Assembly (NCBI GenBank): GCA_017527825.1
Contig: JAFXPO010000016.1
Coordinates: 151,568 to 183,567 of the forward strand
DNA: 32,000 nucleotides
Direction of reading: 5' to 3'
From: Oscillospiraceae bacterium
Lineage (GTDB): Bacteria; Bacillota; Clostridia; Oscillospirales; Oscillospiraceae
Position 1 is the stretch's first letter, and every line of letters starts with the position of its first letter. Both the position numbers and the translations under genes were made by a program. This document shows, piece after piece, positions 2,441 through 21,064 of the stretch. Below the pieces are notes generated by a model, which saw nothing but the letters and a program-made list of their open reading frames with translations, searched no databases and had not been told where the DNA came from.

Positions 2441-2465
2441 CTTTCATTCTCCTTTTTCCCATTTC

Positions 2466-2494
2466 CAAAAAAGCGGGCTTACGCCCGCTTTTTT
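2466..2494. terminator. Strong bidirectional rho-independent terminator ending the phage late operon
   Basis: aaaaaagcgggc-ttac-gcccgctttttt, abutting the TAA of the 312-aa gene. Confidence 0.8.
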
Positions 2495-3431
2495 ACTGTC
2501 TGTACGCCTCGCCGTAGTAGTATTCGTATGCCGCGAGCACCGCGTCGGTCAGGACGCCCGCCTTGATCGCCGCGTTGACCTGCGCCACCGTAAGCGTCGG
2601 CTTCGCCGAGCGTTCGGCAGCCTCCTCCGCTTCCCGCTGCTCCTTCGCCAGCTGTGCGGCGTAGACGGCGGCGCGCTGCGCGTCCTCACGCGCGTACGCC
2701 TCCTGCTGCGCGTCCAGCTTGTCCTGGCGGTTGATGAGGAATTGGAGCGCGTCGGCGTAGGCGTCCATCTGCTCCCGCGCCGCCGCCGCGGCGGCGTTGG
2801 CGCTCTCGATGTCGCCGGTGAGCCGCGCGTCCGCGATCGCCTGATCCAGCGAGCCGACGGCGCTGATGCGCCCCTGCTCACCCTGGCGCAGCGCGTCCTC
2901 ATACGCCGTGTCGTAGCCGAGGCGCGTGGTCTCCGCCGCGCCGCCGGTGACGCCCATGGCGGAGAGCTGCTGGTCCAGATTTTTGCGGTTGCGCATCTTG
3001 TCAATGTAGAGCTGGCGGAACAGGTCGGCGTACTGCGCGTCGGTGTCCGTCTTCTGCGCCTCCAGCGCGTTTACCGCCTTTTGCACCGCCGCCTCCTGCG
3101 CCTGACGCTGCTGCTCCAGCGCCTGCTGACCTGCGCTGTTCTGCGCGCCGCTGTTCAGGGTCTTGTATTCGTCGATGAGCCGGTTCAGCTCCTGCGGCTG
3201 TTTCAGATTCGCGGCATCGTCCGTGCCGCCGGTCACCGTCCAGATGCCGGAGGCTGTGTCAAACGTACTCGTCGAGCCGGTGAGCCCGTCCAGCATCCTG
3301 TTGATTTCGATGTTCTGCCGGTGCAGCTTGTCCTTTTTCTTCTCGTCGCCGGTCAGATGCCAGTCCGCCGCGTTCTGCTTCGCTTTTTCGCGCAGCTCGT
3401 CCGCGGTGATTTGACCAGAACCAAAAGCCAT
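2493..3431 (-). CDS. Hypothetical coiled-coil protein, last gene of the late operon
   Basis: Tracked ORF of 312 aa with AAGGAGGG Shine-Dalgarno 6 nt upstream. It is rich in Q/A/E heptad-like segments, and I recognise no motif. Confidence 0.7.
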   Translation of the reverse strand: MAFGSGQITADELREKAKQNAADWHLTGDEKKKDKLHRQNIEINRMLDGLTGSTSTFDTASGIWTVTGGTDDAANLKQPQELNRLIDEYKTLNSGAQNSAGQQALEQQRQAQEAAVQKAVNALEAQKTDTDAQYADLFRQLYIDKMRNRKNLDQQLSAMGVTGGAAETTRLGYDTAYEDALRQGEQGRISAVGSLDQAIADARLTGDIESANAAAAAAREQMDAYADALQFLINRQDKLDAQQEAYAREDAQRAAVYAAQLAKEQREAEEAAERSAKPTLTVAQVNAAIKAGVLTDAVLAAYEYYYGEAYRQ

Positions 3432-3443
3432 AATTGTCCCTCC

Positions 3444-4091
3444 TTATTGATAAAGCCCCAACCGCTCGTGGATCACGAGCACGCGGAGCATGTCCGTTGT
3501 GAGATCCAGCCCCGCGTCCGTGCCGCGCAGAGCGCCCGCCGCCGTCAGCCGCCGGACCGTCTCCGCCGCCCACGGCGCTTCCCGCTCGATCTCCTCCATG
3601 GTCTGATAACGTTTCATTTCCTCCTCCTCTATTTCCCGTGGGTGAATGTATGCCGCGACAAGGGACGCGGCGCGAACGCGGCGCAGCACCGCGCCGCCGT
3701 CGGCGTCGCTGAGCGTGCCGGTGTTGCCGTCGACAGTGACGACGCTGTCCCCCTGCATGCGCTCAAAGATGCCGGTATGGTCGACCGCCTTGCCGCCGGG
3801 AAAATCGAAGATGACGATGTCCCCGGCGACAGGGTCGCGCGTGAGGCAGTCCGGCTGGTGCTCACGGTACCAGCGCAGCAGCGCGCCGCAGCTCGCCGTC
3901 TTGAAGGGCAGCGCCGCGCCCGCGCGGTCATAGCACCACTGCACGAACGCCATGCACCACGGGTACGCGCTGCCGCTGACCTCCCTGCCGTAGTACCAGG
4001 TGTTGTACAGGACGCGGTTGCTGCCCGGCGGGGATTCCCGCGCGCCCAGCTCTGCCGCCGCGACGGCGAGCACGTCAGTTCCCGCCGCCAT
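3444..4091 (-). CDS. Endolysin with an N-terminal CHAP (Cys/His amidohydrolase-peptidase) domain and a ~57-aa C-terminal module
   Basis: Tracked ORF of 215 aa. The candidate catalytic Cys is in SAYPWCMAFVQWCY and the His in KAVDHTGIF. It overlaps the end of the holin gene, with GGAGGAGA Shine-Dalgarno upstream. Confidence 0.8.
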   Translation of the reverse strand: MAAGTDVLAVAAAELGARESPPGSNRVLYNTWYYGREVSGSAYPWCMAFVQWCYDRAGAALPFKTASCGALLRWYREHQPDCLTRDPVAGDIVIFDFPGGKAVDHTGIFERMQGDSVVTVDGNTGTLSDADGGAVLRRVRAASLVAAYIHPREIEEEEMKRYQTMEEIEREAPWAAETVRRLTAAGALRGTDAGLDLTTDMLRVLVIHERLGLYQ

Positions 4092-4284
4092 CGGTCGTCT
4101 CCTCCCTCTCGCCGCGCTTTTCCGCCTGCGTGCCGAAGTAGAACGAGATCACCACTGTAAACACGGTCAGGAACTCCGTCCCGTCCACGCCGCCGGTGAT
4201 CGCCAGACAGGCGAACACGCCCGTGAGCAGTATGGTCACGATGCTCTTGACCGACGCCAGCCGATCCACGATCCGCTCCTTCAT
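4075..4284 (-). CDS. Putative holin
   Basis: 69 aa with two hydrophobic helices (IVTILLTGVFACLAITGG, FLTVFTVVISFYFG) and a charged C-terminus. AAGGAGGT Shine-Dalgarno lies upstream. It sits directly upstream of, and overlaps, the endolysin gene. Confidence 0.6.
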   Translation of the reverse strand: MKERIVDRLASVKSIVTILLTGVFACLAITGGVDGTEFLTVFTVVISFYFGTQAEKRGEREETTDGGGN

Positions 4285-4523
4285 CGCTCCGACCTCCTTT
4301 CCAAATCCTCAATGCGGTGGTTTGCCACCTTGATTTTTTCCTCCTGCAGCTCCGTGCGCTCCTCCAGCTTATAGGTGCGCTCCACGACGCTGTTGTGCTT
4401 CTCTACTCTCTTTTCCAGCTGCTCCAGCCGGTACGCGATCAGCGCCGCGCTTCTGCGGTTGCTGAGATACGTTCCCAACAGGGCAAGCAGCCCCGTGATC
4501 AGGGCGGTGATCGCATCGCTCAT
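4281..4523 (-). CDS. Membrane-anchored coiled-coil protein of the lysis cassette
   Basis: This is the C-terminal 80 codons of tracked ORF 4281..4964. The ATG at 4521-4523 is preceded by AGGAGGGG. An N-terminal TM (AITALITGLLALLGTYL) is followed by a charged heptad region. Its stop overlaps the holin start by ATGA. Confidence 0.55.
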   Translation of the reverse strand: MSDAITALITGLLALLGTYLSNRRSAALIAYRLEQLEKRVEKHNSVVERTYKLEERTELQEEKIKVANHRIEDLERRSER

Positions 4524-4537
4524 TCCTCGCCCCTCCT

Positions 4538-5443
4538 CTATGCCGTGACCGGCGGCAGCGCGGTGTAATAGGTCGTGTTGATGTCCGGGGTGCCCATAAA
4601 CGTACCGCCGGTGGAATCGAACATATCGCAAAGCGAGGTTGATTGACTCGTTCCCGTTCCCGCGGTAGGGATGCGGTACGCGTAGGGATACTCGCTCGAT
4701 TGAGTGATGGAGAGCTTGAGCGCCTGGCAGTTGTAAAACATGTCCGAGTAACACCATTCTGGTAGTGTCAGCGCGGGTAGCATGGGCACCGTTTTCAAAG
4801 AGAGACAGTTTCTGAACATGCTGGCGTAACAGTCTTCCGCCAGCGTCGTCGCGGGCAGCGCGGGCACCGTTTTCAAAGAATGGCATTCTCTGAACATGTT
4901 GGCGTAACAGCGTTCCGCCAGCGTCGTCGCGGGCAGCGCGGGCGGGTATAGAAGCGACTTGCAATTATAAAACATATTTTCGTAGCAATCTTCACCCAGT
5001 GTGGTCGCGGGCAGCTCCGGCGCTGAAATCAATGCGGTGCAGCTATAGAACATCCCATAAAACGCGTATCTACCCGCCGTCGAAGCGGTTCCTGCCGCCA
5101 CTGCGGCATAATCGAGAAGCGTTTGGATGTTCCCGTCGCAGCGGACATTTTCTCCCTGAATGACAAATGTTTTGTCTGTCTTCTTAGCAAAACCTGTATT
5201 CGCAATCCCGCGTAACGCAAGATAGCCCTCAGGCGCGTTCAGCGTGACGGTGCTGTCCCACACCGCCCAGTCGGCGTCGCTGTTTTTGTATTCCACCGTT
5301 CCGTTCCAGTTCTTTTTGCCGTCCATAGCCGACACGGTAAACGGAGCGGAGCTGGAAAACACAATGCAGTTCCACATCCTCGCCAGATCGGGCCCGACGA
5401 TCGGAAACCCGTCCTGCTTGCGAATATAGGGGTTGAGAATCAT
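4538..5443 (-). CDS. BspA-type leucine-rich-repeat protein (candidate receptor-binding / distal tail protein)
   Basis: Tracked ORF 4538..5887, trimmed to the ATG at 5441-5443 (MILNPYIRKQ), which overlaps the fibre gene stop by ATGA. It has 4-5 tandem 25-aa repeats of the form LPATTLAExCYxxMFxxCxSLKTVP. Confidence 0.75.
   Translation of the reverse strand: MILNPYIRKQDGFPIVGPDLARMWNCIVFSSSAPFTVSAMDGKKNWNGTVEYKNSDADWAVWDSTVTLNAPEGYLALRGIANTGFAKKTDKTFVIQGENVRCDGNIQTLLDYAAVAAGTASTAGRYAFYGMFYSCTALISAPELPATTLGEDCYENMFYNCKSLLYPPALPATTLAERCYANMFRECHSLKTVPALPATTLAEDCYASMFRNCLSLKTVPMLPALTLPEWCYSDMFYNCQALKLSITQSSEYPYAYRIPTAGTGTSQSTSLCDMFDSTGGTFMGTPDINTTYYTALPPVTA
4706..5071 (-). repeat. Tandem ~75-bp coding repeats (LRR units)
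   Basis: Near-identical units are visible in the DNA, for example gcgggcaccgttttcaaaga...ctgaacatg.tggcgtaaca..cttccgccagcgtcgtc repeated at about 4774-4851 and 4851-4928. Confidence 0.8.
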
Positions 5444-6870
5444 GCGCTCACCTCCGTAATCACCACATACACCGTCAGCGATGAGGTCGGCACGGAATCG
5501 CAGGAGAAGGTCAGGCGGTTCGTTGCCTGCGCCGTCGCCCGGACCCCCGCCGCCTCGTAAGCGCTCCGGGACGCGCTGGCGGGCACGGGCTGAATGAGCT
5601 GCGCCGTCTCCGTCGCGCTCACGCCGGTGACCGTGACGCTCTGCGTCTTGCTCGACCATCCCGACGCGCTGAGCGTCACGGTGACGCGCTTGATCTTGTT
5701 CTGCTTCGCGTTGAGCGCGGTCTGCGTCGCGGTGGAGACCGGCTTGTTCAGGTCGCTGGTGTTGTTGACGCTGCCCAGCCCCACCATCGCCGCCGTATAG
5801 TCGCCGGACTGCGGCGTCACCGCGCCGGTCCTGCCGTTGAAGCTGGTCACGCGGGCGTTTGCGGACTGCTCCGCCTGTTCCGCCCAATACTTCGCGTTGT
5901 TGTGGTACGCCGCGTCGGTGGATGGTACGTCCGCACCGCTACGCTGGCCCACCGCCCACGCTTCGCTGTCCTTCGCGCTGTTCTCGGCGGACGCGGCGGA
6001 GTTCGCCGCGTTCGTCTCGCTGGTTGACGCGGAAGATGCGCTGGTTGACGCGGCGGTTGCGCTCTGCGCGGCGGCGCTGGCGCTGTTTGACGCGTTGCTC
6101 GCGCTGGCGGCGGCGTCCGCCGCCTTCTGGTTCGCCGTGTTTTTGTACACTTCCGCCGCCGTGACGCTCTGCGCGGCGGAGGTCGCGCTGTTTGACGCAG
6201 TGATCACATAGCCGCGCAGCTGAGCGGCAAGCGCGGAGGAGAGCATCGAGTCGGTGATGCTCCCGGTCTTGATCGACGCCGTCACGCAGTGGTTGCGGAC
6301 GGAAAACTCGATCTGATCGCTGTCCTGAAACTCCGTTTCCGTGACGAACGCGGACAGCGGAATGCTCTGCGCTGATCCGTCCGCCAGCGTCAGGATCAAG
6401 CTCTGCGTCAAGGCGTCGTACCGCCAGTTGGTCGCGACCTTCTCCAGCGCCGTATCGATCACGGTGAAGCTGCCGTCCTGGCGGGTGAAGGTAAACGCGC
6501 CGGTGACGGCGTTGAAACTCACCGACTTGATGTGCAGGTCGGTCACCGACTTGTCGCTTTTGAGTGAGAGCGCGGAGGTCACGTCCGCTCTGGTGCTTTT
6601 GGTGTCCAGAATGGTTTTGAGGCTGCGCAGCACCGTCTGTACGTCGCCGCCGGCGATGCCGGCGATGGCGGTGGTGCCGATCTCCGCCGCGCCGTCCTCG
6701 CCGGAGAGCGCGTCGATCAGCCCGTTGAACAGCTCCTGCACCGTCTCGCGGATGAGGCGGTCGAACACCGCCTTGTTCTGCGCTGCGGTGCCGGTCAGCT
6801 TGTCGGGCGCGGCAATGACGCCCTTTTGCGCGATGGCGCTGTCGGTAATTTTATAGTCTGTTAAACTCAT
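5440..6870 (-). CDS. Tail fibre protein
   Basis: Tracked ORF of 476 aa. The N-terminus reads PDKLTGTAAQNKAVFDRL. An Ala/Ser-rich coiled segment follows, and a C-terminal FNGRTGAVTPQSGDYTAAMVGLGSVNNTSDLNKPVSTATQTALNAKQNK motif is common in phage fibres. Confidence 0.7.
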   Translation of the reverse strand: MSLTDYKITDSAIAQKGVIAAPDKLTGTAAQNKAVFDRLIRETVQELFNGLIDALSGEDGAAEIGTTAIAGIAGGDVQTVLRSLKTILDTKSTRADVTSALSLKSDKSVTDLHIKSVSFNAVTGAFTFTRQDGSFTVIDTALEKVATNWRYDALTQSLILTLADGSAQSIPLSAFVTETEFQDSDQIEFSVRNHCVTASIKTGSITDSMLSSALAAQLRGYVITASNSATSAAQSVTAAEVYKNTANQKAADAAASASNASNSASAAAQSATAASTSASSASTSETNAANSAASAENSAKDSEAWAVGQRSGADVPSTDAAYHNNAKYWAEQAEQSANARVTSFNGRTGAVTPQSGDYTAAMVGLGSVNNTSDLNKPVSTATQTALNAKQNKIKRVTVTLSASGWSSKTQSVTVTGVSATETAQLIQPVPASASRSAYEAAGVRATAQATNRLTFSCDSVPTSSLTVYVVITEVSA

Positions 6871-6879
6871 GGTTTCCCC

Positions 6880-8742
6880 CTATTCTCTGGCAAATTTGCC
6901 CGCCGCGTAGTGCTTCACGATGGCATACACGCCGAAGCCCTCGTTGACCGCGTCGTTTTTCACCAGAATTTGCAGACGCTTGTATTTTTTCACCGCGTGG
7001 CGAAAGGCGATCTCCGACGGACCGTCGTTGGTGTTGAAGGCGACGCGGGAGAAGTCAATGGTCTCCCAGCTGAAAATGTCCATCGTGCCCTCCGCCGCCT
7101 GCCATGCCACCGCGTCGCGGTCGGTGCGGAAGAAAATCTTCGCCCCTGAGCACGCGTAGGGCTTGATGGTGACGGCGTTGCCGTGCTTGAGCAGGGTCTT
7201 GTACACCATCGGGTCACCGTCGTCGTCCGCGCGGGTCGACCACACCGCCTCGATGGCGGCGCCGTCGTCGTTGTAGCGCGCCATGCCCTCAATGTCGGTG
7301 TTGAAGCGGCACACCCTGCCGTCCGCCGTGCCGAAATACAGGGACTCCCGCCCGTTCTCCATGTGCCGGAGCACGCAGCGCGCCGGGACGTTCTCCCAGT
7401 AAAAGCACTCATAGACAAAGCTCATGTCGCCGCGGGACTGATAGCTGCGGCTCTGCCGCCCGTCAAGCCCGTAGACCCGCCCGCCGACGAAGATGAGGTA
7501 CGCGCCGTTGTAGCTGCACGACACCGCCTCGCTCAGGTCCTCGCTGAGCAGCTTGGGATCGACGCGGAAACTGCGGTTCTGGGCAATGCGCTCCGCGGTG
7601 AGACTGTTGGTGGTCAGGGCGTACACGCCGCTGCCGGTGAGAAGCAGCTGCTCGTCGCCGATGCTGCCGAAGCCGAAGCGCGACACCGCGCCCGCGCCCG
7701 CGAGGCAGGGCTTCACCGGAAACCGCGCCTCCCCGTCGTCGTCGAGCGCACCGGAGCGCAGGAACACGGTGGAATCCTGCCCGTTGTCCTCCTTGATGAC
7801 GGCGAGGTATTCTCCCAGCCGCCGGTAGCCCATGACCGCGGTCTCGTCCGTGCCGATGACGGCGTAGCTCGTGTCCGGCCAGTATCCGCCGTTGGCATAG
7901 GCGCAGATGAAGTCGTAGTTCGGATAGTCCGGGTTTCCTGTGGCGACGATGCGGTCGCTCGCCGCGCCGACGCCCCAGACGATCGCCGCGCGGCACCTGC
8001 CGATGCGCCCGGCATAGCCCGGCACCGTTTTGGTAAACGTGATGACCACGTTGTCCTCCGCGCCCGCGGCGGGCGCAGCCGGCGCGGCGGCAAAGGTCAC
8101 GTTACCCGCGGTGAGGTCCGCCGACCAGCCGGCTGTCAGGCGTTCGCCGTTCACCTCGACGGCGTCCACGCTGTCCAGCCCCTCGCAGGGCAAAACGTAC
8201 ACCGTGCTGCTCCCGTCGGCGAGGAAGCTCACCCGCTGCGCTCCCGTCAGCAGGTTCACCGCCTCATAGCTCACGCCGCCGCCCGCGGGCGTTCGGGCAA
8301 TGACCGTCAGCGGCGCATAGGCGTCCTCCGCCGCGTCGCGGACAGCGATTCCGTCGTAGCAGTACAGCCCGTCGCCGGTGAACAGCCACAGCATACCGCC
8401 CATGTATACCGCCATACTGCGCGCGTCGGGCAAATGCTCCGCCAGCAGCGCGGGCGGCGTGCCGCCGTCCTCATACCAGCGCCAGAGCTTTGTGCCCGCG
8501 TGGACAAGCCGGTGCGCCGTTCCGTCGAACACCGCGTCAAACAGCCCGTTGACACGCCCGTCGAAGGTTTGCAGTGTGCGCCAGCCGGGGCGCTTTTCCG
8601 GCATGCCGCCCATGTCGGCGACCATGTTGGGCGCCCAGGGCGAGCGGGCGTCGTCCACCAGCGCGGGGTCGGTGGTGAAGTCCACGCCGCGGAAGCGCTC
8701 GTATTTCTTGGTGCGGATCGCCGCACCCTGTTTCCTCGCCAT
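6880..8742 (-). CDS. Large tail hub / nozzle-like structural protein (function assigned by position)
   Basis: Tracked ORF of 620 aa with GGAGGT Shine-Dalgarno upstream. It has repeated beta-propeller-like segments (LWRWYEDGG, LWLFTGDGLYCYDG, LYFGTADGRVCRF). Its position after the capsid and adaptor-like genes matches T7 gp12 / P22 gp10 layouts. Confidence 0.45.
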   Translation of the reverse strand: MARKQGAAIRTKKYERFRGVDFTTDPALVDDARSPWAPNMVADMGGMPEKRPGWRTLQTFDGRVNGLFDAVFDGTAHRLVHAGTKLWRWYEDGGTPPALLAEHLPDARSMAVYMGGMLWLFTGDGLYCYDGIAVRDAAEDAYAPLTVIARTPAGGGVSYEAVNLLTGAQRVSFLADGSSTVYVLPCEGLDSVDAVEVNGERLTAGWSADLTAGNVTFAAAPAAPAAGAEDNVVITFTKTVPGYAGRIGRCRAAIVWGVGAASDRIVATGNPDYPNYDFICAYANGGYWPDTSYAVIGTDETAVMGYRRLGEYLAVIKEDNGQDSTVFLRSGALDDDGEARFPVKPCLAGAGAVSRFGFGSIGDEQLLLTGSGVYALTTNSLTAERIAQNRSFRVDPKLLSEDLSEAVSCSYNGAYLIFVGGRVYGLDGRQSRSYQSRGDMSFVYECFYWENVPARCVLRHMENGRESLYFGTADGRVCRFNTDIEGMARYNDDGAAIEAVWSTRADDDGDPMVYKTLLKHGNAVTIKPYACSGAKIFFRTDRDAVAWQAAEGTMDIFSWETIDFSRVAFNTNDGPSEIAFRHAVKKYKRLQILVKNDAVNEGFGVYAIVKHYAAGKFARE

Positions 8743-8745
8743 AGC

Positions 8746-9294
8746 CTACCTCCGATACAGGCTCTGCCGCGCGCCGCCCGAACCCATCGTCGAGCGGGGC
8801 AGCAGGGCGCGCATCTGCAAATAGAGGTTGTAGAACGCGCCGTAATCCACCACCAGGTCCGCCACAAGCTGCTGCGCCGCCACAAAAAAGGGCAGGCAGT
8901 TCGCTGCCTCGTCGCTGACCTCAAATTCGTAGTCGTCCGGCGTTTGCGGCGAGATTGCCTCCGGCGAGGCGATGTAATCCAGCGTGAGCAGGGACCGGTC
9001 GCCCTCCGGCGAGAGCAGCGCGCCGTCCACGACCTCGTAGCCCGTGACGACGTTGCCGTTTTTCCGCACGCGGATCACCCGCGACACGTCGCGGGGCAGC
9101 GTCATGCTGCCTGTGCCGTCCAACAGCAGCGCCACCCGTCGCACGATGGGCTGCCACGCCGCGGCGTCCCGCTGCGCCATGTCAAAGAAATCGTTCATCT
9201 TCGCGTCGATATCCGCGTCGACGCGCACCTCGCCCAGCGCGGAGTATTCGTCGAGCAGCATCAGCACCTTGCGCTTTGCCTCTCCCAATGTCAT
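8746..9294 (-). CDS. Head-tail adaptor-like protein (function assigned by position)
   Basis: Tracked ORF 8746..9333, trimmed to the ATG at 9292-9294 (MTLGEAKRKVL) with GGGAGGAA 6 nt upstream. At 182 aa it sits between the capsid and tail hub genes. Confidence 0.4.
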   Translation of the reverse strand: MTLGEAKRKVLMLLDEYSALGEVRVDADIDAKMNDFFDMAQRDAAAWQPIVRRVALLLDGTGSMTLPRDVSRVIRVRKNGNVVTGYEVVDGALLSPEGDRSLLTLDYIASPEAISPQTPDDYEFEVSDEAANCLPFFVAAQQLVADLVVDYGAFYNLYLQMRALLPRSTMGSGGARQSLYRR

Positions 9295-9314
9295 ATATGG
9301 TTCCTCCCTTCCTC

Positions 9315-9345
9315 CCGGAGGGTAACGGTTCACGTTACCCTCCGG
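9315..9345 (-). promoter_or_regulatory. 12-bp stem-loop immediately downstream of the capsid gene
   Basis: ccggagggtaac-ggttcac-gttaccctccgg. No U-tract follows on the transcribed strand, and the stem abuts the Shine-Dalgarno of the next gene. Confidence 0.5.
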
Positions 9346-9375
9346 GTAAAAAAGCCTGTCGCGGAATGCTGACGC

Positions 9376-10323: not shown

Positions 10324-10348
10324 GATTTCAAATCTCCTTTCGTGATTT

Positions 10349-10386
10349 CTGCGAAGCATCGCAGTGTCTGCCGCCCGCAGGCGGCA
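10349..10386 (-). promoter_or_regulatory. Two adjacent stem-loops in the leader of the capsid gene
   Basis: ctgcga-agca-tcgcag (10349-10364) and tgccgcc-cgca-ggcggca (10369-10386), inside the 96-nt scaffold-capsid intergenic region. Confidence 0.45.
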
Positions 10387-10419
10387 AATGATTTTGGCGT
10401 GTTTCCGGCGGCGTGCGTG

Positions 10420-10845
10420 TCAGCGCCCCAGAAACTCTCTGGCGGTCATTGCCATTTCCGGGTGCTCGGTGTTCCATGCGTCCAGCACATACTTCTGTGC
10501 CGGGGTCAGCGCCGCGCCGCCCGCCGTGCCGCCGCCGGTGGAGCGGGCGCTGCGGCTCTGCATCTGCGCCACTGCCGCGGCGCCCGCCTCGCTCACCAGC
10601 GCCACAAAGTCGTCGTAGAGCGCGGCGAGAGGCTCGTGCCCCATACGCGAGCCGCAGAAGCGGAGAAAGCGGGTGTTGCCCATCAGCTTCTCCACGTCCA
10701 CGTCCCCATGGCGCTCCAAAAACTCGTCGAGGTCGCGCATGGCGAAGTCCAGCCTCGCCTTTTTCGCCAGCGCGATCTCATCGAGCAGCTCGGTCTCCGG
10801 GGTCTGCGTCAGCGCCTGCGTGGTTTTTTCCTGATCCATCTTCAT
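10420..10845 (-). CDS. Scaffolding protein (assigned by position and composition)
   Basis: Tracked ORF of 141 aa, acidic and helical, lying between the portal and capsid genes. Its start overlaps the portal stop by ATGA; an alternative ATG at 10837-10839 has better Shine-Dalgarno spacing. The C-terminus ...LTPAQKYVLDAWNTEHPEMAMTAREFLGR is shared with the 714-aa protein. Confidence 0.6.
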   Translation of the reverse strand: MKMDQEKTTQALTQTPETELLDEIALAKKARLDFAMRDLDEFLERHGDVDVEKLMGNTRFLRFCGSRMGHEPLAALYDDFVALVSEAGAAAVAQMQSRSARSTGGGTAGGAALTPAQKYVLDAWNTEHPEMAMTAREFLGR

Positions 10846-12638
10846 AACTCCTTTCCTGTCATATCTATCGCCACGCCCGGTTCACCGGGCGGTACGACCG
10901 TTTCCTCCGGCGCGAATTTCTCACGCCACTGTGCGACGATCTCCTGCTTCTGCGGGATGTCCAGATAGTCCAGCTCCGCCGCCAGAAGCTTCCAGTTGTC
11001 CGCCGTGACCTTGGTCTCGATCAGCTTCTCCAGCGCGTTTACCGTCGCGGTCGGACTGCGGCTCAGGCTGCTGCCTGCGCTTACGGTCACGTCGACACGC
11101 GGGTAGTAAAGCTGTCCCGCGCGGATGGTCTCACCGGTCAGGGGATCGGTCAGCGCGCCGGTCTCTATGGCGTAGTTCGCGCCGTTGTAGCGGATGGATT
11201 CTTCCGTGCCGCCGGTCTGCTTCGCGCCGATGAACAGCAAGCGCCCGTCGTCAAAATACTCCAGCGCCAGCTTGTCCAGCAGCTCATAGAGCCGGCAAAA
11301 GCCCGCGTTGCGGTCGGCGGATTTGATCTTCTGCTGCGCCTGCGCGTCGGTGCGCAGCTGCATCAGCCCGCTGGCGGTGGTGACGCGGGTGGTCTCCTGC
11401 CCGATGTTGGAATCGTAGTTGCGGTTGGTGCGCTGGATCTGACCCAGCAGCCAGCTCACCATGCTGAGGCTCTTCACCCCGTCGGACAGCCCGCCGAGGC
11501 GGGCGATGCCGCCGCCGCGTCCCTGATTGACGCGCACCACCGCGCCGGGGACGTTGGTGAACTCCTCGCCGGGGGCGAGGGCGCCGTCCTCCAGGATGAC
11601 CACGTCGTTGGCGGTCATCGCGTCGTTGAACAGTCCCGTCGCCAGTTCGCGGTCGGCGGCGTCCACCAGCGGCAGGATCGGTTCCAGCTCGCTCTTGTTC
11701 CAGAACTGGGTCTCGTCCCGAATGCACCAGTAATGCACGAAGGGGAAGTCGTCGCACTGCGCGCCGAGCTTCACCCAGTAGTTCGGGATGTGCCGCAGCT
11801 CCACGCCGCCCGCCTGCACGCTGCACCCCACGCTGCCCGCCTTCGCCTCCCTTGTGTCAAAGGGCTGGCGGTACCAGAACTCCATTACCTGCACCACGTC
11901 GTCGCGGCTCGCGGTGGACTGGGTGTAAGGCTCCAGGATATCGTCCGCCTCGCGGTACTGCGCCGCGCCCACCACGTCGTCGAGCGTCTTGTCCTGCCGC
12001 GTCAGCGCGCTGTGGTAGAGCCGCCAGAATCTGAGCTTGTGCATGGTGTAGACGTAGAACACATACTCGCCGCTTTGCAACCCCTCCGGTCCCGCCGTGG
12101 GGTCGGGGTAGATGTCCTGCACCGCCACATCGCGCACGCGGATGTTGCCGCGCTTATCGCCGCAGGGCATGGTCTCGTCCCAGTACGCCTTCCAGAACGC
12201 GTCGCCGTACTTGCGCAGCCTTCGCTCGTTGGCGGTGTTCCGGTCGCCGAGGCGATTTTCCTCGATGAGGTACTTCACCGCCAGCTCGCGCTCGTGCGCC
12301 TTTTTGCCGTCGAGGTCGTCGTCGCGGCCGTGGAACTCCGGCTGCGGCACCTCCGGTTCGATCTGGCTCTCCACCATGATGTACGGGTCAGGCACGCAGG
12401 CGGGCGTCCACGGAAGACCGCTGTCCTCGAACGCCTCCGCCATCTCCCGCGCCGCGTCGTGGGCGAAGTTGTAGTAATCGTTGTACCTGCGCCACTCCGC
12501 CTCGCGCACCGCGCGCTCGTCCTTCGCCTGCTGGAACAGCCACTCCGCCGTGGCGACGCGGCCCTCGCTCGTCGAATAGTCATAGATGCGTCCCCGTTCA
12601 TACCCCTCCGGGGTGGGGATGCGTTTGAATAATCCCAT
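10842..12638 (-). CDS. Portal protein
   Basis: Tracked ORF of 598 aa with AGGAGGAG Shine-Dalgarno upstream. Its size and position upstream of the scaffold and capsid genes fit a portal, as does the N-terminal region EAEWRRYNDYYNFAHD, typical of portal N-termini. Confidence 0.7.
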   Translation of the reverse strand: MGLFKRIPTPEGYERGRIYDYSTSEGRVATAEWLFQQAKDERAVREAEWRRYNDYYNFAHDAAREMAEAFEDSGLPWTPACVPDPYIMVESQIEPEVPQPEFHGRDDDLDGKKAHERELAVKYLIEENRLGDRNTANERRLRKYGDAFWKAYWDETMPCGDKRGNIRVRDVAVQDIYPDPTAGPEGLQSGEYVFYVYTMHKLRFWRLYHSALTRQDKTLDDVVGAAQYREADDILEPYTQSTASRDDVVQVMEFWYRQPFDTREAKAGSVGCSVQAGGVELRHIPNYWVKLGAQCDDFPFVHYWCIRDETQFWNKSELEPILPLVDAADRELATGLFNDAMTANDVVILEDGALAPGEEFTNVPGAVVRVNQGRGGGIARLGGLSDGVKSLSMVSWLLGQIQRTNRNYDSNIGQETTRVTTASGLMQLRTDAQAQQKIKSADRNAGFCRLYELLDKLALEYFDDGRLLFIGAKQTGGTEESIRYNGANYAIETGALTDPLTGETIRAGQLYYPRVDVTVSAGSSLSRSPTATVNALEKLIETKVTADNWKLLAAELDYLDIPQKQEIVAQWREKFAPEETVVPPGEPGVAIDMTGKEL

Positions 12639-12745
12639 GGTTCTCCTCCTGTTTGTAACTTATAAAGTTTCTTTCAGGGAGTGTTTATTTTTCATTTTCG
12701 TTGTGCTATTATTCAGTTAATTGATTTGAAAGGAGCTGTCACATC

Positions 12746-13012
12746 ATGTTCAAAAGCGAAACGCTTCGTCAAGTGTCCAAGCCAGCCGCGCTTCTTTTCG
12801 GCATTACCTTTCTAATAAAGCTTTTCTGTAATCCCTATTTTGAACTTTTCCCCATACTCTTTGCCATTTTGATTTTTGAGGTGTTTGCTCTCATCACTTG
12901 TTATTATCTTGTCATCTGCAAGAACAAGCCACGCAATATGATTTGGGCAAATTATGTTATTTGGACGCTTTTTGTTAACCTTGGTGACTTAGCGGCGGCA
13001 CTTTCCGCTTAA
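12746..13012 (+). CDS. Small 3-TM membrane protein encoded on the opposite strand in an AT-rich insert (moron)
   Basis: Tracked ORF of 88 aa with AAGGAG at 12730-12735. An extended -10-like TGCTATTAT lies at 12704-12712. Hydrophobic helices include LLFGITFLIKLF, LFPILFAILIFEVFALITCYYLVI and IWANYVIWTLFVNLG. Confidence 0.55.
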   Translation: MFKSETLRQVSKPAALLFGITFLIKLFCNPYFELFPILFAILIFEVFALITCYYLVICKNKPRNMIWANYVIWTLFVNLGDLAAALSA

Positions 13013-13014
13013 TT

Positions 13015-15159
13015 TCACCGCCCCAAGAACTCCTCCTCGGTCATGCGCAGTTCGGGAAAGGCGCTGTTCCATGCTTCCAATTCCCGCCGCTGCTCCGGCG
13101 TAAGCGTCTTCGCCCCGCCGCGCTCCCGCGCCAGCTCTGCCAGCAGCGCCGCGTAGTCGTGCGGCGTGCCGGAAAACGGTCTGGTTGAATTGAGTAAAGG
13201 CGGAAAAAGAGGCCGCTGGTCACTTGCCCGATATCTGCTGTTGATGTAACCTTGATGGATCGCGGCGAGTTCCGCGGCATAAGCGTCAAAATCATAAAAC
13301 GCGTTTTTCAAGCCGTTGTACATGTTCTCCGGCATTTTTCCTGACGCTACATGTCCGTAAATTGTCGCGTTCAGCTCATCGTAAAGCGTTTTGATCTCCG
13401 ATTCCGTCGCATCAAAAGGGTCGATGCCGCGATGAGCAGATATTTCATCAAGCAATTTGTACGCTATGTCATTTTCTAGATCAATCATCTCCGGCGTTCG
13501 CTCAATGAAATCCAGATACGGCTGGTATCCCGCCTGTTTCATAACATGCGTCCCCTCGTGCGGCGCGATCATGCCCCGGTTCTCCTCCGGTATGGTTTCG
13601 CGCATATAGACCTCGGCGTTGCGGGTAAACGCGGAATCCGACCTGTTCCACTCAGCTTCGGGAATAATATGCACATTGGCATTGTACTGGGAAAGGGTCT
13701 GTCTCGAATCCTGCGCGACACTCAGTCCTCCGTGTCGTTTCCAAAGGTCACGAAAAGCTTCAAGAAATTTTCCGTCTCCTCCCTGTACTTTGGGTCGGTT
13801 TCCATTTTCTGCCTGTGCCTCATAATCCCCTCTTGTAGCTGCCTGCGCTGTCTCTCGAAGCGTTCCTCCCGGGTTTCTTCCTTGTCCGCCATTGCCTGTG
13901 CCCTCCATTCCTGTGATACTATCACTATACGCGCTTCGCGCCTGCGGAACAAGCCCGTTTTTTGCCTTCCCCGCAGCCGCCTGTCCGCCGCCGAGGACGC
14001 CGCCGACCGCTGCGCCGACGCCGAACTCCTTTGCCGCCGTCGCCGGGTTGAGTACTGCTGTCTCATTCCCGACCGAGAACAGCGGATTTTTCTTGCCGTA
14101 CACGACATTTTGCAAGCCGCGCTCGGTCACGCCCTGGATCGGCTCCTCCGCGCCCTCCTGCACGGCGGATCGCAGCCACTGTTTGAGCGCGGGTGCTCCG
14201 CTTTGCAGTTCTTTCGGCAAGGTCTCAAGTCCTCCCCCGACCTCCGCCGCCGCGTTGAGCAGCCCGTTGCCCATTGCATACGCTGAAGCCTTGGCGTCGC
14301 TCGCGCCGTCCGCCTTCGCCTGTTCGTAGCTTTCGCCCACCGTGCGCAGAAAGCTCGTCCAAAAGTTCGGATTGCTTGCCAGACCCGATACCGCGCTCCG
14401 CAGCGAGTTTAGGACGCCCGGCGCCCGCTGCGCCGCGGCAGCCGCCGCCTCAAGCCCTTTTGTGCCAACCGACGCGCCGCCGCTCATGAGCGCGGTGATT
14501 GCCTGCGGAACCGCCGCGACGACCGCCGTGCCGACGGTATCGGCGATCTTTGCCGCCGTGCCGCCCGCCGCGACGTTTGCCGCGCTGCTGCGGTAAGCGT
14601 CCTTTCGTTCCCGTTCGATCGCGTCGTTCCACTTGTAGAACAGGCCGTGCTGCTCCTGCATATCGTCAAAGCCGGTCAGCGCTTCCGCCAGCGCAAATGC
14701 CGCGCCCTCCAGCAGCGAAAGTGTACTGCTCATGGCGTGTGCCGACTCCGTCGTGCCCTTGCGGGCGATCCCCTCCAGCAGCTTCGCCGTGCTGAACGTA
14801 TCGCCGGAGGTTTTCTTATTCTCCGCCGTCTCCTTTGCGGCGGTCTTTTCAGCTTGGAACGTCGTTTTGGGAATCACTGCCAAGGCCGTGGATTCCGGCG
14901 TCTGTTTTACCGGACGCACATAAATCTGCCCGTTCTTTTCCTCCGCGGCGGCCTTTCCGGCGCTCACCAGCGCGTCCGCCGTCCTTGCGCTGATGGGGCC
15001 TTGGTTCAGGCTCAGCAGGCTTGCCGGATTGTAAACCGGAAGCTGCTTTTTTTCGTTCTGCTTGTCCAACTCATCAAGCACATTGCGCGCGGGGACGTAT
15101 CCGTTCGTCCGTACCCTTGTTCCGCGCTCTTTGCCGTAGATGTCCTTTACCTGCGCCAT
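13015..15159 (-). CDS. Large virion-associated protein candidate with a Gly/Ala-rich central region, an HExxH motif and a scaffold-like C-terminal peptide
   Basis: Tracked ORF of 714 aa containing MIAPHEGTHVMKQ (HExxH). The central YAMGNGLLNAAAEVGGG-type motif is reminiscent of phage polyvalent or ejected proteins. The C-terminus reads TLTPEQRRELEAWNSAFPELRMTEEEFLGR. Confidence 0.6.
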   Translation of the reverse strand: MAQVKDIYGKERGTRVRTNGYVPARNVLDELDKQNEKKQLPVYNPASLLSLNQGPISARTADALVSAGKAAAEEKNGQIYVRPVKQTPESTALAVIPKTTFQAEKTAAKETAENKKTSGDTFSTAKLLEGIARKGTTESAHAMSSTLSLLEGAAFALAEALTGFDDMQEQHGLFYKWNDAIERERKDAYRSSAANVAAGGTAAKIADTVGTAVVAAVPQAITALMSGGASVGTKGLEAAAAAAQRAPGVLNSLRSAVSGLASNPNFWTSFLRTVGESYEQAKADGASDAKASAYAMGNGLLNAAAEVGGGLETLPKELQSGAPALKQWLRSAVQEGAEEPIQGVTERGLQNVVYGKKNPLFSVGNETAVLNPATAAKEFGVGAAVGGVLGGGQAAAGKAKNGLVPQARSAYSDSITGMEGTGNGGQGRNPGGTLRETAQAATRGDYEAQAENGNRPKVQGGDGKFLEAFRDLWKRHGGLSVAQDSRQTLSQYNANVHIIPEAEWNRSDSAFTRNAEVYMRETIPEENRGMIAPHEGTHVMKQAGYQPYLDFIERTPEMIDLENDIAYKLLDEISAHRGIDPFDATESEIKTLYDELNATIYGHVASGKMPENMYNGLKNAFYDFDAYAAELAAIHQGYINSRYRASDQRPLFPPLLNSTRPFSGTPHDYAALLAELARERGGAKTLTPEQRRELEAWNSAFPELRMTEEEFLGR
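13722..13892 (-). CDS. Embedded +1-frame ORF (56 aa) inside the linker of the 714-aa gene
   Basis: GGAGGG (13901-13906) lies 8 nt before the ATG at 13890-13892. The product is MADKEETREERFERQRRQLQEGIMRHRQKMETDPKYREETENFLKLFVTFGNDTED. Codon third-position GC (GC3) favours this frame over the long ORF frame across the segment. Confidence 0.35.
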   Translation of the reverse strand: MADKEETREERFERQRRQLQEGIMRHRQKMETDPKYREETENFLKLFVTFGNDTED

Positions 15160-15162
15160 GCT

Positions 15163-16533
15163 CTACCAATCACTCCTTCTTCGTTTTTGCTTCCGCTTTT
15201 CCCGCGGGGCGAGCCGGTCGATCAGCTTCACCCGCTGCGGCGCGGCAGGCTCGCAGCCGTTCGCCGTCCAGTAAACGCAGAAGCCGCGCAGGGCGTCGGG
15301 CGCATGGGTCAGCTCATGGGGCGAGTTCGCCACGTCGTTGACCCGATGCTCGTCGTATTGCAGCAACGGCAGGCAGCGGATGATGTTCCGGCAGTTGGGG
15401 AAGAACCGGATGCGCGGACGCTTGACGCCGTCGGCGCCCTCGCGGGGCTTGAGCCACTCCTTGACCGCCAGCCAGCCGTTGACGCGGTCGTTGGAGGTCT
15501 TGGTCAGATACACGCCATGCTCGGCGAAGATGTCCGCGACGCTCTTGCCGCTCTCCTGTCGGGCGTTCCAGAGGTCGGGCGGCGCGAGATAGGCGGTGAC
15601 GGTTCTGTCCCCCGCCAGCGCCCTGACCGCTTCCGCCGCCTCGGAGATGATGAGGCCGTCGTGCCCCTCACCCCGGTCGCGGCCCTCGTAGACCTCGCCC
15701 ACGACCCACGCCTCGCCGTTCTCGTCCACGCCGATGAGCAGCGCCGCCAGCATGTCGAGGCCGTAATCCATCGTGACGTACCAGCGCCACCACGCGCCGG
15801 GCAGGAACGCTTCGCAGACGTGAAGCTCCCGATCCCACTCGGTGAAGTACTGCCCCACGAACACGTCCCAGTTGCCGTCGCGCCACGCCTCCCGCAGACC
15901 GCGGGGCAGGTTGTCCAGCCGCCGGACGTACTCCGGGTCCTTCTCCACGAGGATTTTATTGTCCGTCACCTTGGCGGGGATGAACACATAGTCCTCCGGT
16001 CGCTCGCCGCCGCGGAAGTCCCGGTCGATGAACAGGCGCTTCACCCACGCGTGTCCCGGTCCGCCGGGGTTGCAGGTGAGGTACATTCGCTTGGGGAAGT
16101 CGTTGGCGCCGCGCAGCGCGGCGGTCAGCGTGGCGTACTGGTACTCGGTGAAGTGGGTCGCCTCGTCGAGGAAGATCACGTCGTACTCCTGCCCCTGGTA
16201 CTGGTCGACGTCGCCCTCGCTGTCACAGTAGCCGAAGACGATCAGGCTGCCATTGGGGAACTCGAACGCCTTGTCCGTCGCCTTGTAATCCGCGACGCCG
16301 CGCAGCAGCCGCCGCATGGGGCGGATGTGGTTCTCGCGCAGCTCGACGAGCGTGCGGCGCAGGATCAGGATGCGGATGCCCGCGTACCGCGCCGCCATCA
16401 GCACGGATTTGTGCTGCACGCACCAGCTCTTGCCGCCGCCCCGCGCCCCGCCGTAGCAGACGTAGCGCTCCCGCGCGGCGAAGAACAGCTCCTGCCTGGG
16501 CTGCGGCGGCGGCAGTACGATCTCAGTCGCCAC
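15163..16533 (-). CDS. terL: Terminase large subunit
   Basis: Tracked ORF of 456 aa. The Walker A motif is in YGGARGGGKSW, and the Walker B / nuclease regions (VIFLDEATHF, TCNPGGPGH) are typical. The GTG start overlaps the TerS stop. Confidence 0.9.
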   Translation of the reverse strand: MATEIVLPPPQPRQELFFAARERYVCYGGARGGGKSWCVQHKSVLMAARYAGIRILILRRTLVELRENHIRPMRRLLRGVADYKATDKAFEFPNGSLIVFGYCDSEGDVDQYQGQEYDVIFLDEATHFTEYQYATLTAALRGANDFPKRMYLTCNPGGPGHAWVKRLFIDRDFRGGERPEDYVFIPAKVTDNKILVEKDPEYVRRLDNLPRGLREAWRDGNWDVFVGQYFTEWDRELHVCEAFLPGAWWRWYVTMDYGLDMLAALLIGVDENGEAWVVGEVYEGRDRGEGHDGLIISEAAEAVRALAGDRTVTAYLAPPDLWNARQESGKSVADIFAEHGVYLTKTSNDRVNGWLAVKEWLKPREGADGVKRPRIRFFPNCRNIIRCLPLLQYDEHRVNDVANSPHELTHAPDALRGFCVYWTANGCEPAAPQRVKLIDRLAPREKRKQKRRRSDW

Positions 16534-16762
16534 GGTCGCCCACCTCGTCGGACAGCGTCAAAATGACGCGGTTGCCGTCGATGTTCGCCGCCTTGATCGG
16601 CACGTCCAGCCCCAGAATCTTGCTGATCTGATCCAGCGCGCTGAGCGCGCCCTTGGCGTCGAAGCCCTTCGGCTCCTCCTGAATGCAGCGCTCGTACACC
16701 TCCAGATACTTTCGGATCACGTCGTCCTGCGTCAGCTCCGGTTTCTTCCTTCTTGCAGCCAT
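16523..16762 (-). CDS. Terminase small subunit-like protein (short, 79 aa)
   Basis: Tracked ORF 16523..16921, trimmed to the ATG at 16760-16762, which follows an almost perfect Shine-Dalgarno (GAAGGGAGGTGAGGGC). The basic N-terminus MAARRKKPELT and ...KGALSALDQISKILGL resemble a TerS core. It lies directly upstream of, and overlaps, terL. Confidence 0.5.
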   Translation of the reverse strand: MAARRKKPELTQDDVIRKYLEVYERCIQEEPKGFDAKGALSALDQISKILGLDVPIKAANIDGNRVILTLSDEVGDRGD

Positions 16763-16930
16763 GCCCTCACCTCCCTTCGTCACCGATGTGAACTGATTCC
16801 CCGCGTCGCCCCTCCACTTGTAGCCCGTAGCGTTACTTTTTGTGCAAAAAGCGTCCTGCTCGGCTCTCTTCACGGGCGCGCTCTCCCGCCCACCGCATAA
16901 TTCACATGGGTAACTCATCAAGTTGCCACT

Positions 16931-16959
16931 AGTGTAACATTTGTTCTATGACTTGTCAA
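16931..16959 (-). promoter_or_regulatory. Late (structural operon) promoter
   Basis: Minus strand reads TTGACA (16954-16959), a 17-nt spacer, then TGtTACACT (-10 at 16931-16936). Confidence 0.65.
16934..16947. promoter_or_regulatory. Cheo-box-like (GAAC-N4-GTTa) candidate operator overlapping the late promoter -10
   Basis: Minus strand reads AGAACAAATGTTAC, against the Firmicute LexA consensus CGAAC-N4-GTTCG. A second 11-bp palindrome, ACTTGtCAAGT at 16951-16961, overlaps the -35. Confidence 0.4.
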
Positions 16960-16970
16960 GTTCTTTTTTC

Positions 16971-16999
16971 TTGATTTTTGAAAATTTTTATGGTAAGAT
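16971..16999 (+). promoter_or_regulatory. Repressor gene promoter
   Basis: TTGATT (16971-16976), a 17-nt spacer, then TGgTAAGAT (-10 at 16994-16999). AAGGAGGG Shine-Dalgarno and the ATG at 17030 follow. Confidence 0.6.
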
Positions 17000-17029
17000 A
17001 GGGCATTATTAAAATAAGGAGGGATCGCC

Positions 17030-17797
17030 ATGACGCTGGGCGAACGAATCAGGGCTGCGCGGGAAGCGCTGAAGATGACGCAGGAGGAGCTGGGCGCGCT
17101 GTGCAACACCACCAAGCAGACCATCTTCAAGTATGAAATGGGCATCGTCACCAACATCCCGCTGGACCGGCTGGAGCTGCTGAGTGAGAAGCTGGGCGTC
17201 ACCCCCGCCTATCTCACCGGCTGGTCGACGGAACCGGCGCTCCGCCTGCCGGAGAAGCTGCAAGCACTTTCCGAGCCGTTCGCCCGTCTCAACGACGACG
17301 GGCAGGACAAGGTCGTCGATTACACCGCCGATCTGGTCTCCTCCGGCAAGTACGTCCGCGAGGAGCCGGCGCGGGTGATCCCCTTCCCCAAGGCGAAGCG
17401 CCGCGCCGACGGCTTTGTGGAGTTCAAGGTCTACGACCAGCCCGCCGCCGCGGGTCTTGGCAACTATATCGACACCCCCGTGTTCACCGTGGAGCAGTAC
17501 CCCGCCCCGCTGGCGCCAGAGGGCGCGGACTTCGGCGTGCGCATCTCCGGCGACTCCATGGAGCCGGAGATTCCCAACGGCTGCACGGTATTTGTCCGCC
17601 CCACCCCGGCGGTGGACGTGGGCGACATCGGCATTTTTGTCTACGACGGTCAGGCGTACTGCAAAAAATTGATCGCCGACCGCGCGAACCGTCGAACGCT
17701 GCTGCGCTCCCTCAACCCGAAGTACGCCGACATTGTGGTGGAGGACGAGGCGCGGATGCGCACGCTGGGCAAGGTGCTGGGTCACTACCCGGCATGA
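17030..17797 (+). CDS. CI/LexA-like repressor with an XRE-family HTH and an S24 self-cleaving peptidase domain
   Basis: Tracked ORF of 255 aa. The HTH region is LKMTQEELGALCNTTKQTIFKYEMG. A candidate Ala-Gly cleavage site is in PAAAGLG. The Ser is in SGDSMEP and the Lys in AYCKKL. Confidence 0.9.
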   Translation: MTLGERIRAAREALKMTQEELGALCNTTKQTIFKYEMGIVTNIPLDRLELLSEKLGVTPAYLTGWSTEPALRLPEKLQALSEPFARLNDDGQDKVVDYTADLVSSGKYVREEPARVIPFPKAKRRADGFVEFKVYDQPAAAGLGNYIDTPVFTVEQYPAPLAPEGADFGVRISGDSMEPEIPNGCTVFVRPTPAVDVGDIGIFVYDGQAYCKKLIADRANRRTLLRSLNPKYADIVVEDEARMRTLGKVLGHYPA

Positions 17798-17863
17798 CGC
17801 CGCGGGAAGCCGTTTTTTGTAGACTTATTGATCATTATTGAATTTTCAGGTCTTTTCAAAGTA

Positions 17864-17892
17864 AAGAAACCCGCTCAAAGAGCGGGTTTCTT
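17864..17892. terminator. Bidirectional rho-independent terminator at the right edge of the element
   Basis: aagaaacccgct-caaag-agcgggtttctt, flanked by A and T runs. Confidence 0.75.
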
Positions 17893-21055: not shown

Positions 21056-21064
21056 GGGGCGCGC

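Follow-up and report, generated by a model that had tools for sequence, protein, structure and literature searches.

Among phage-derived particle producers, the alphaproteobacterial, siphovirus-like gene transfer agent (GTA) RcGTA is regulated by the host proteins CtrA and GafA, has its lysis genes elsewhere and packages ~4 kb, and the PBSX element of Bacillus subtilis is SOS-inducible, has a contractile tail and an Xpf sigma factor between its repressor and its late genes, possesses a repressor without an S24 domain, and kills rather than transfers. Here we describe an element of ~16 kb that lies in a 32-kb stretch of an Oscillospiraceae genome (assembly GCA_017527825.1, contig JAFXPO010000016.1, positions 151,568 to 183,567; hereafter the window) and that combines podovirus-like late genes with a divergent repressor gene. 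FpGTA of Faecalibacterium prausnitzii was published as the first podovirus-like GTA: its genes form two operons 125 kb apart (one for head and packaging, one for tail and lysis), its 40-nm capsids carry about 8.4-8.9 kb of host DNA, its small terminase subunit (TerS) has no obvious DNA-binding domain, it is near-ubiquitous in its host genus, and the paper mentions no repressor (Borodovich et al., Nat Commun 2026, PMC12946183). In the same study GTA-like packaging was detected in Oscillospiraceae without the genes being found, and a ~35-kb 'generalised transduction' signal was given for Oscillospiraceae scaffolds (Borodovich et al., Supplementary Data 1, PMC12946183). The original prediction for the locus, i.e. 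a podovirus-style GTA- or PBSX-like element of a kind that had not been described for GTAs, is outdated on the latter point because FpGTA has been published; a literature search for GTA gene clusters of the rumen or of Oscillospiraceae returned nothing beyond that paper.

The window element resembles FpGTA in combining podovirus-like genes for head, tail and lysis with a lack of genes for replication or integration, in residing in a host whose family is related to that of FpGTA (the Ruminococcaceae), and in encoding a TerS without a recognisable DNA-binding domain, in this case a stump. Nevertheless, the FpGTA capsid protein (RCH50849.1) is annotated as N4-gp56 and comes with a Prp-like gene, whereas the capsid protein of the window is of the Phage_capsid_4/Mu gpT-like type; the FpGTA operons are split, whereas the open reading frame (ORF) listing of the window gives a single contiguous operon with an adjacent S24 repressor; and FpGTA particles have been observed, whereas the window element is known from genes alone. 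The element is therefore not an obvious FpGTA homologue, as judged from capsid annotation and layout. With PBSX it shares chromosomal fixation, a phage-derived region without integrase or replication genes, an Xre-family repressor beside the late genes and an XhlA-type lysis protein; unlike PBSX it is short-tailed, has no intermediate sigma factor and has a repressor that faces the late operon directly. The likeness to RcGTA consists of a vertically inherited head-tail cluster under purifying selection, a truncated TerS and the lack of self-replication, and the differences are the short tail, the element's own repressor and the presence of lysis genes within the cluster. Capsid-forming phage-inducible chromosomal islands are similarly small (~13-16 kb) and have their own terminase, portal and capsid, but they possess an integrase, replication genes, att sites and borrowed tails, in all of which the window element is the opposite. 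From a functional temperate prophage it differs by the absence of integrase or excisionase, att sites and a replication/early module.

The explanation that we favour, with a probability of about 0.6, is that a podovirus-derived late module, bereft of every lysogeny, early and replication function, has become fixed between a block of HAD, PNP and ThyA genes and mscS, and that it is inherited vertically as a GTA/PBSX-like particle producer in a clade of ruminant-gut Oscillospiraceae. It is apparently an independent podovirus-derived lineage of this type and, as such, the second podovirus-like GTA-type locus after FpGTA.

Reduced elements at one chromosomal site and their phage relatives

Relatives were collected by a portal-based scan, which provided 48 loci from GTDB species genomes and 80 loci from IMG/VR, each of which was scored against all proteins of the window (individual loci are cited by L numbers); portal homologues number at least 820. 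An identical portal protein is encoded on 12 metagenome contigs, with the gene order of the window in all six places listed, and those of them that extend into the flanks agree with the window there as well. Loci with a portal identity of at least 76% (group A) comprise about ten species-representative metagenome-assembled genomes (MAGs), mostly from ruminant gut, as well as metagenome contigs. Wherever the contig reaches far enough, group-A loci hold the same reduced gene set as the window, with identities of 72-89% for the repressor, 81-96% for the large terminase subunit (TerL) and 80-95% for the capsid protein. Apart from some local rearrangements their neighbours are also the same, i.e. 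HAD, PNP, Asp/Glu racemase, ThyA, DHFR and RecG on the repressor side and MscS on the lysis side. The close homologues are thus not autonomous phages of ~16 kb, but the same reduced element at the same chromosomal site in about ten related species. In one subclade (L025, L027, L068, L070 and L071) the genes are intact and stand in the order TerL, adaptor and/or nozzle, portal, scaffold, capsid.

Loci with a portal identity of 41-68% (group B) present a different picture. None has a repressor of the window type, its operator or these host flanks, and they share no conserved chromosomal site. Most of them have a different terminase and gave no TerL match, and the few related TerL proteins are 50-68% identical; in the two lineages examined, a full-length Terminase_2 TerS accompanies a TerL of 555-559 amino acids (aa). 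Where the upstream side is covered, early genes are present (PcfJ, DUF3102, DUF551, Tad2-like and REP-like), and the contigs cluster at 38-44 kb. What group B shares with the window, in the same order, is the capsid protein (51-76%), the adaptor, the nozzle (32-74%), the Ala-rich protein and the terminal gene. The closest cultured relatives are members of Pagevirus, i.e. 40-kb podophages of Bacillus megaterium, in which a detectable match is confined to the 620-aa protein (28%). The contrast between the two groups therefore indicates that the window element corresponds to the late module of a podophage of ~40 kb together with a repressor.

Two loci in more distant Oscillospiraceae, whose HAD proteins are 60-63% identical, have other phage-like clusters next to this HAD gene: L150 (12583-20654) has TerL, capsid and tail sheath genes in one cluster, and in L153 (10810-13150) HAD is immediately followed by a full-length Terminase_2 TerS and a TerL of 418 aa, with no repressor or integrase in view in either case. 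Such clusters could represent additional cases of domestication, or else point to a hotspot at this locus.

Co-divergence, selection and ancestry of the site

Co-divergence was assessed in six species that have both the element and the flank, by comparing the synonymous divergence (dS) of the concatenated TerL, portal, capsid and repressor genes with that of PNP, racemase and ThyA. The two values are nearly equal in all 15 species pairs (e.g. 0.39 versus 0.39 and 0.83 versus 0.87) and correlate with a Pearson r of 0.93, which in a Mantel test is reached by the identity permutation alone (1/720). In the same comparison the element has a ratio of non-synonymous to synonymous divergence (dN/dS or omega) of 0.11-0.25 and the host genes have one of 0.09-0.22; relative to the closest species (L017) the ratio is 0.057 for TerL, 0.118 for the portal and 0.119 for the capsid. 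Purifying selection thus acts on the core genes (0.06-0.25), and the core structural genes are full length, not truncated as simple prophage decay would have them.

In two further species (L146 and L151) the space between HAD and MscS holds a remnant that consists of the repressor, the promoter motif, TerS, a fusion of TerL with the CHAP endolysin and the Ala-rich gene. The fusion joins the first ~120-140 TerL codons to the endolysin (L146 12033-12947; L151 6962-7850), and the repressor is thus kept even in deletion derivatives. Because these remnants lie at the identical site, the site is taken to be ancestral and the element immobile. An M42 peptidase gene and an IS605 OrfB/TnpB gene are inserted before mscS in L146.

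Co-divergence, purifying selection and a near-invariant repressor-controlled promoter (see below) together favour a domesticated locus, a reading that comparative genomics supports well. The domestication part of the original prediction is accordingly supported; the two remnants show that not every species has kept the element.

One promoter between two operator-like palindromes

The regulatory features are the following:

17030-17797, plus strand: CI-like repressor, 255 aa, with an XRE helix-turn-helix and an S24 autocleaving peptidase domain
16912-16962, minus strand: operon promoter with two operator-like palindromes (promoter scan, repeat search and alignment of 13 loci)
12657-12669, no strand assigned: third operator palindrome, perfect (AACTTATAAAGTT), ~12 nucleotides (nt) upstream of the portal ribosome-binding site

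The repressor matches Peptidase_S24 (E 1.2e-21) and HTH_3 (E 1.2e-13) of Pfam and PHROG 4, a family of transcriptional repressors, and its translation shows the GDSM serine, the CKK lysine and the AAG cleavage motif. The first palindrome, O1 (16950-16962), overlaps the -35 box TTGACA at 16954-16959; the extended -10 box TGTTACACT is located at 16931-16939; and the second palindrome, O2 (16912-16924; AACTT-AAA-AAGTT), follows just downstream of the -10 box. Across 13 aligned spacers between repressor and TerS, ACTTGACAAG, i.e. the -35 box TTGACA inside AACTT-GAC-AAGTT, is invariant, and both the extended -10 box TGyTAnnnT (TGyTA) and AACTTAAAAAGTTAC are conserved. The promoter/operator 10-mer is found in exactly one copy in each of the 24 repressor-bearing loci and in 0 of the 129 other loci. 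Control of the element thus appears to be exerted by its own CI-like S24 repressor.

In the window the operator palindrome has three matches with at most one mismatch, against 0.24 expected. The third of these, AACTTATAAAGTT, is present only in the window's species, is AC-extended like O2 and lies at the junction that was made by the insertion of the 714-aa and 88-aa genes (see below); it may constitute a second repressor-controlled restart point. A GAAC-N4-GTT motif (GAACAAATGTTAC; minus strand, 16934-16946) that resembles the Firmicute LexA (Cheo) box overlaps the -10 box. GAAC is present in 8 of the 13 aligned loci and the complete GAAC-N4-GTT in six, and the site might be bound by host LexA as well, unless the match is simply the extended -10 box.

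Gene content of the element

All ORFs of the 32-kb window were scanned against the Pfam, PHROG and NCBIfam families. The element spans ~1926-17797, with the late genes on the minus strand and the repressor gene divergent from them. Apart from the regulatory features its genes are, from the terminase end onward:

16523-16762, minus strand: TerS stump, 79 aa, lacking the N-terminal portion of the phage protein
15163-16533, minus strand: TerL, 456 aa (Pfam Terminase_3 and Terminase_6N, E 1e-13; PHROG 979, E 7e-48)
13015-15159, minus strand: accessory protein, 714 aa, with an HExxH motif and a scaffold-like C-terminal tail, in the slot between TerL and portal
12746-13012, plus strand: membrane ORF, 88 aa, a moron-like insertion, AT-rich, called in metagenome contigs
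10842-12638, minus strand: portal of the P22 type, 598 aa (Pfam P22_portal, E 5.8e-9; PHROG 156)
10420-10839, minus strand: scaffold-like protein, 139 aa, between portal and capsid, similar mainly to the C-terminal region of a phage protein of ~300 aa
9376-10323, minus strand: major capsid protein, HK97-like, 315 aa (Pfam Phage_capsid_4/Mu-like_gpT; PHROG 371)
8746-9294, minus strand: head-to-tail adaptor-like protein, 182 aa (Pfam SU10_adaptor, E 1.7e-4, below the cutoff; PHROG 13046, E 1e-25)
6880-8742, minus strand: tail nozzle/hub, 620 aa, with a beta-propeller (PHROG 3287, virion structural protein; AlphaFold and Foldseek)
5440-6870, minus strand: tail fibre, 476 aa (PHROG tail fibre and minor tail families)
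4538-5443, minus strand: BspA-type leucine-rich repeat (LRR) protein, 301 aa, of lower GC content (Pfam LRR_5, E 1.6e-4, below the cutoff)
4281-4523, minus strand: XhlA-like protein, 80 aa (Pfam XhlA, weak), the start of the lysis cassette (3444-4523)
4075-4284, minus strand: membrane protein, 69 aa, part of the lysis cassette
3444-4091, minus strand: CHAP endolysin (Pfam CHAP, E 3e-10)
2493-3431, minus strand: Ala/Gln/Glu-rich protein, 312 aa, coiled-coil-like by eye
1926-2440, minus strand: terminal gene, truncated; the homologous phage protein has 293 aa, and the copy here is internally deleted and frame-shifted

This inventory, from TerS to the lysis cassette with a divergent XRE/S24 repressor, agrees with the original prediction, as upheld by ORF listing, translation and family scans. 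The same holds for the absence of other modules: the Pfam and PHROG scans of the 32-kb window yielded no integrase, excisionase or replication gene, and no tail sheath, tube or tape measure family was matched there. The tight packing of the operon is likewise borne out, with overlaps between adjacent genes of 4, 4, 4, 11 and 17 nt as read off the coordinates. The claim that the repressor is the only gene outside the operon fails on the plus-strand 88-aa ORF, which together with the 714-aa gene breaks up the operon, both genes being specific to this lineage. Two further corrections concern the left border, placed at 2466 before, as phage-derived DNA including the truncated copy of the 293-aa gene reaches ~1926, and the length of TerS, which is 79 aa instead of 131 aa.

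In the longer reading of TerS the 52 N-terminal codons overlap the operator/leader and are interrupted in L017 by a stop upstream, and this reading was rejected; a Shine-Dalgarno sequence (GGAGGTGAG) precedes the ATG at 16762, and the group-A orthologues called in metagenomes are 79-80 aa long. The 79-aa protein aligns solely to residues 90-154 of the 175-aa Terminase_2 TerS of a group-B phage, from which it follows that the N-terminal part of the phage homologue is missing. SF6-type small terminases have their DNA-binding domain in that N-terminal part. The truncation is at most suggestive of random packaging of host DNA.

The slot between TerL and portal is occupied by the 714-aa protein, for which no match was found in Pfam, PHROG, NCBIfam or a PDB sequence search. 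Among the group-A loci it has a match only in L017, where its gene has been split into three ORFs. Over the N-terminal part (13850-15159) this AT-richer gene differs from L017 7701-9014 by a dS of 0.144, compared to 0.4-0.5 for the neighbouring genes, which suggests a recent exchange between lineages. Over its last 27 aa the 714-aa protein shows 56% identity to the C-terminal end of the scaffold-like protein. This tail, …P.Q…L.AWN…PE..MT..EFLGR, is common to the 139-aa scaffold-like protein (10420-10500), the 714-aa protein (13015-13095) and an unrelated 394-aa protein of L148 (15184-15393), the last of which occupies the same slot. It has the appearance of a tag that directs interchangeable cargo proteins to the capsid or portal, and the TerL-portal junction that of an insertion hotspot. 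The adjacent 88-aa membrane ORF, within a low-GC stretch, is found only in the window's species.

The scaffold-like protein is 56% identical over 81% of its length to L012, in which the ORF after the portal has 296 aa. In general, the post-portal protein measures 296-307 aa in the phage-like loci, 314 aa in the element L025 and 131-232 aa in most elements; its shortening could mean an altered capsid size. The capsid protein gave no NCBIfam match at E values of at most 0.01. The 620-aa protein is 28% identical to a structural protein of the Bacillus podophage Page, and in its AlphaFold model (mean pLDDT 62.8) residues 51-480 form a confidently predicted beta-propeller core. The highest-ranking PDB matches in Foldseek are podovirus portal-tail and tail chains, i.e. 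those of cyanophage A4, Pa223, GP4, P22 gp10-gp26, Pan3 and VP1, with modest TM-scores of 0.3-0.46 and generic propellers intermixed. The P22-type portal, the adaptor-like protein, the nozzle-like fold predicted for the 620-aa protein and the absence of tube and sheath genes support a short tail, as originally assigned.

The tail fibre is highly variable between species. The LRR protein, which is likely to serve receptor binding, is 34-42% identical in L007 and L017 and absent elsewhere. The lysis cassette matches PHROG endolysin families (E 1e-24) and phrog_13256. The 312-aa Ala-rich protein has no match in Pfam, PHROG or NCBIfam; it is 47-77% identical within group A and 29-61% identical in related phages, and we suspect that it is a virion or ejection protein. 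In those phages it is followed by homologues of the 293-aa protein, which gave no matches in the Pfam and PHROG scans. In a tblastn alignment the L017 copy matches the window at 2440-2384 with its aa 1-19 and at 2384-1929 with its aa 138-293. A plus-strand ORF of 236 aa (1627-2337), called in metagenome contigs, overlaps this minus-strand remnant and is probably spurious, and the remnant was preferred. An AT-rich stretch (1456-1925) separates it from mscS.

The element is flanked by housekeeping genes, as predicted: MscS on the lysis side, and HAD, PNP, MBOAT, racemase, ThyA, DHFR and RecG on the repressor side. No tRNA gene was found in the 32-kb window, a search of Rfam gave 0 matches, and no flanking att-like repeats of at least 10 nt were found. 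The small AT-rich islets noted before are three in number (1.5-2.5 kb, the LRR gene and 12.5-13.5 kb) and coincide with variable accessory genes. Between PNP and racemase, genes for an MBOAT acyltransferase and a DHHW/AlgX-like protein (19643-22255) are present only in the window's species; in L017, L019, L022 and L026 they are absent and PNP adjoins the racemase gene.

Proposed mode of action and alternative explanations

In the scheme that we propose, the CI-like XRE/S24 repressor would bind the two AACTT-N3-AAGTT palindromes on either side of the operon's single sigma-A-type promoter, and DNA damage would lead to its RecA-stimulated self-cleavage. The whole operon would then be transcribed directly, with no Cro, antiterminator or late-activator step, so that the terminase, procapsids, a P22/T7-style tail of adaptor, nozzle and fibre, and the lysis proteins would be made, after which the cell would lyse and release the particles. 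Because there is no excision and no replication, and because TerS is without its N-terminal part, the packaged DNA would be chromosomal, and the element would act as a GTA-like or PBSX-like particle producer. A more specific version, namely an active SOS-triggered podovirus-type GTA, independent of FpGTA, that packages chromosome stretches of ~35-40 kb if the large ancestral capsid has been kept, either at random or in situ, is put forward tentatively and is more doubtful than domestication as such.

Several observations weigh against a domesticated particle producer. Retention is not universal, since L146 and L151 hold deletion remnants only. A 222-aa gene without Pfam or PHROG match, which in most relatives lies between the scaffold-like and capsid genes, is missing from the window lineage, L017, L018 and L065; L017 (17615-18955) is without the endolysin and the 69-aa membrane gene; L022 (16425-17014) and L035 have no fibre or LRR genes within the cluster; and the last gene of the window element is truncated. 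The lysis functions of L017 and the fibre functions of L022 and L035 may have been relocated, as in the two-operon FpGTA, or lost. Part of the dS correlation could stem from genome-specific GC content at third codon positions, an effect that would itself imply long residence. Moreover, all carrier hosts are uncultured MAGs and the element is known from genes alone. Losses such as those of the 222-aa gene, the L017 endolysin and the L022 fibres, the truncated terminal gene and the large deletions that spare the repressor would also be expected of a vertically inherited defective prophage remnant that decays slowly and persists because its repressor silences toxic lysis genes. We hold this to be quite unlikely, in view of a core that is intact in about ten species at dS values of 0.4-0.9 with an omega (0.06-0.25) that indicates constraint no weaker than that on neighbouring housekeeping genes, of regulatory DNA that is near-invariant, and of core genes that are all intact even in rearranged gene orders. 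Alternatively, the locus may have been domesticated as a killer or lysis device in the sense of PBSX, in which particles or lysis, triggered by the SOS response, would serve to damage competitors or to release goods, DNA transfer being incidental. An SOS-type repressor beside a late operon in a Firmicute, the XhlA-like lysis protein and the fast evolution of the fibre and LRR genes agree with such a role, but constraint is strongest on the terminase, portal and capsid genes, which hints that selection acts on the packaging of DNA itself, and the family scans revealed no contractile tail or other obvious killing apparatus; this role is thus unlikely, too.

The remaining explanation is that of a still-mobile minimal phage or helper-dependent element that packages itself, either alone or by in-situ headful packaging with flanking DNA, and re-enters by homologous recombination. 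The IMG/VR contig L070 speaks for this and likewise against full domestication: it nests within group A in neighbour-joining trees (reduced locus set, no support values), and upstream of TerL it has a C5 methylase and small early-type ORFs, with no repressor and no operator motif. As phage-like upstream genes are thus found inside the clade, a live phage with this module may still exist. Two MAGs each contain two different group-A elements (L018 and L025 in RGIG3791, L021 and L035 in RUG12493), which could reflect bin mixing with related species or a second locus, and the element is inverted relative to mscS in L024. The low dS of the 714-aa gene (0.14), far below that of its neighbours, implies that some exchange occurs. 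Nevertheless, the dS of the element tracks that of host genes pair by pair, the neighbourhood is constant, att site, integrase and replication genes are lacking, and no terminal repeats were found on the four IMG/VR contigs checked (three of ~13 kb and one of 18.8 kb), which makes continued mobility very improbable. A domesticated, vertically inherited particle producer therefore remains the explanation that we prefer.

Implications

GTAs are known from few lineages, and one podovirus-like example has been described so far. The locus would represent a second, apparently independent domestication, in abundant gut Firmicutes, and the control circuit proposed for it is unusually simple, consisting of one autocleavable repressor, two operators and one operon. 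If the element were an active GTA with the large ancestral capsid, it could be one genetic basis of the ~35-kb 'generalised transduction' signal in Oscillospiraceae scaffolds; were packaging to start in situ within the element, the element would be carried along with flanking host genes. It provides concrete genes and a promoter to be tested against virome data, in which packaging of Oscillospiraceae host DNA has been seen without a known cause. Living phage relatives of ~40 kb are available for comparison, and so are natural deletion derivatives. The element can also illustrate which phage functions domestication preserves, which it truncates (TerS, the scaffold region) and which it discards.

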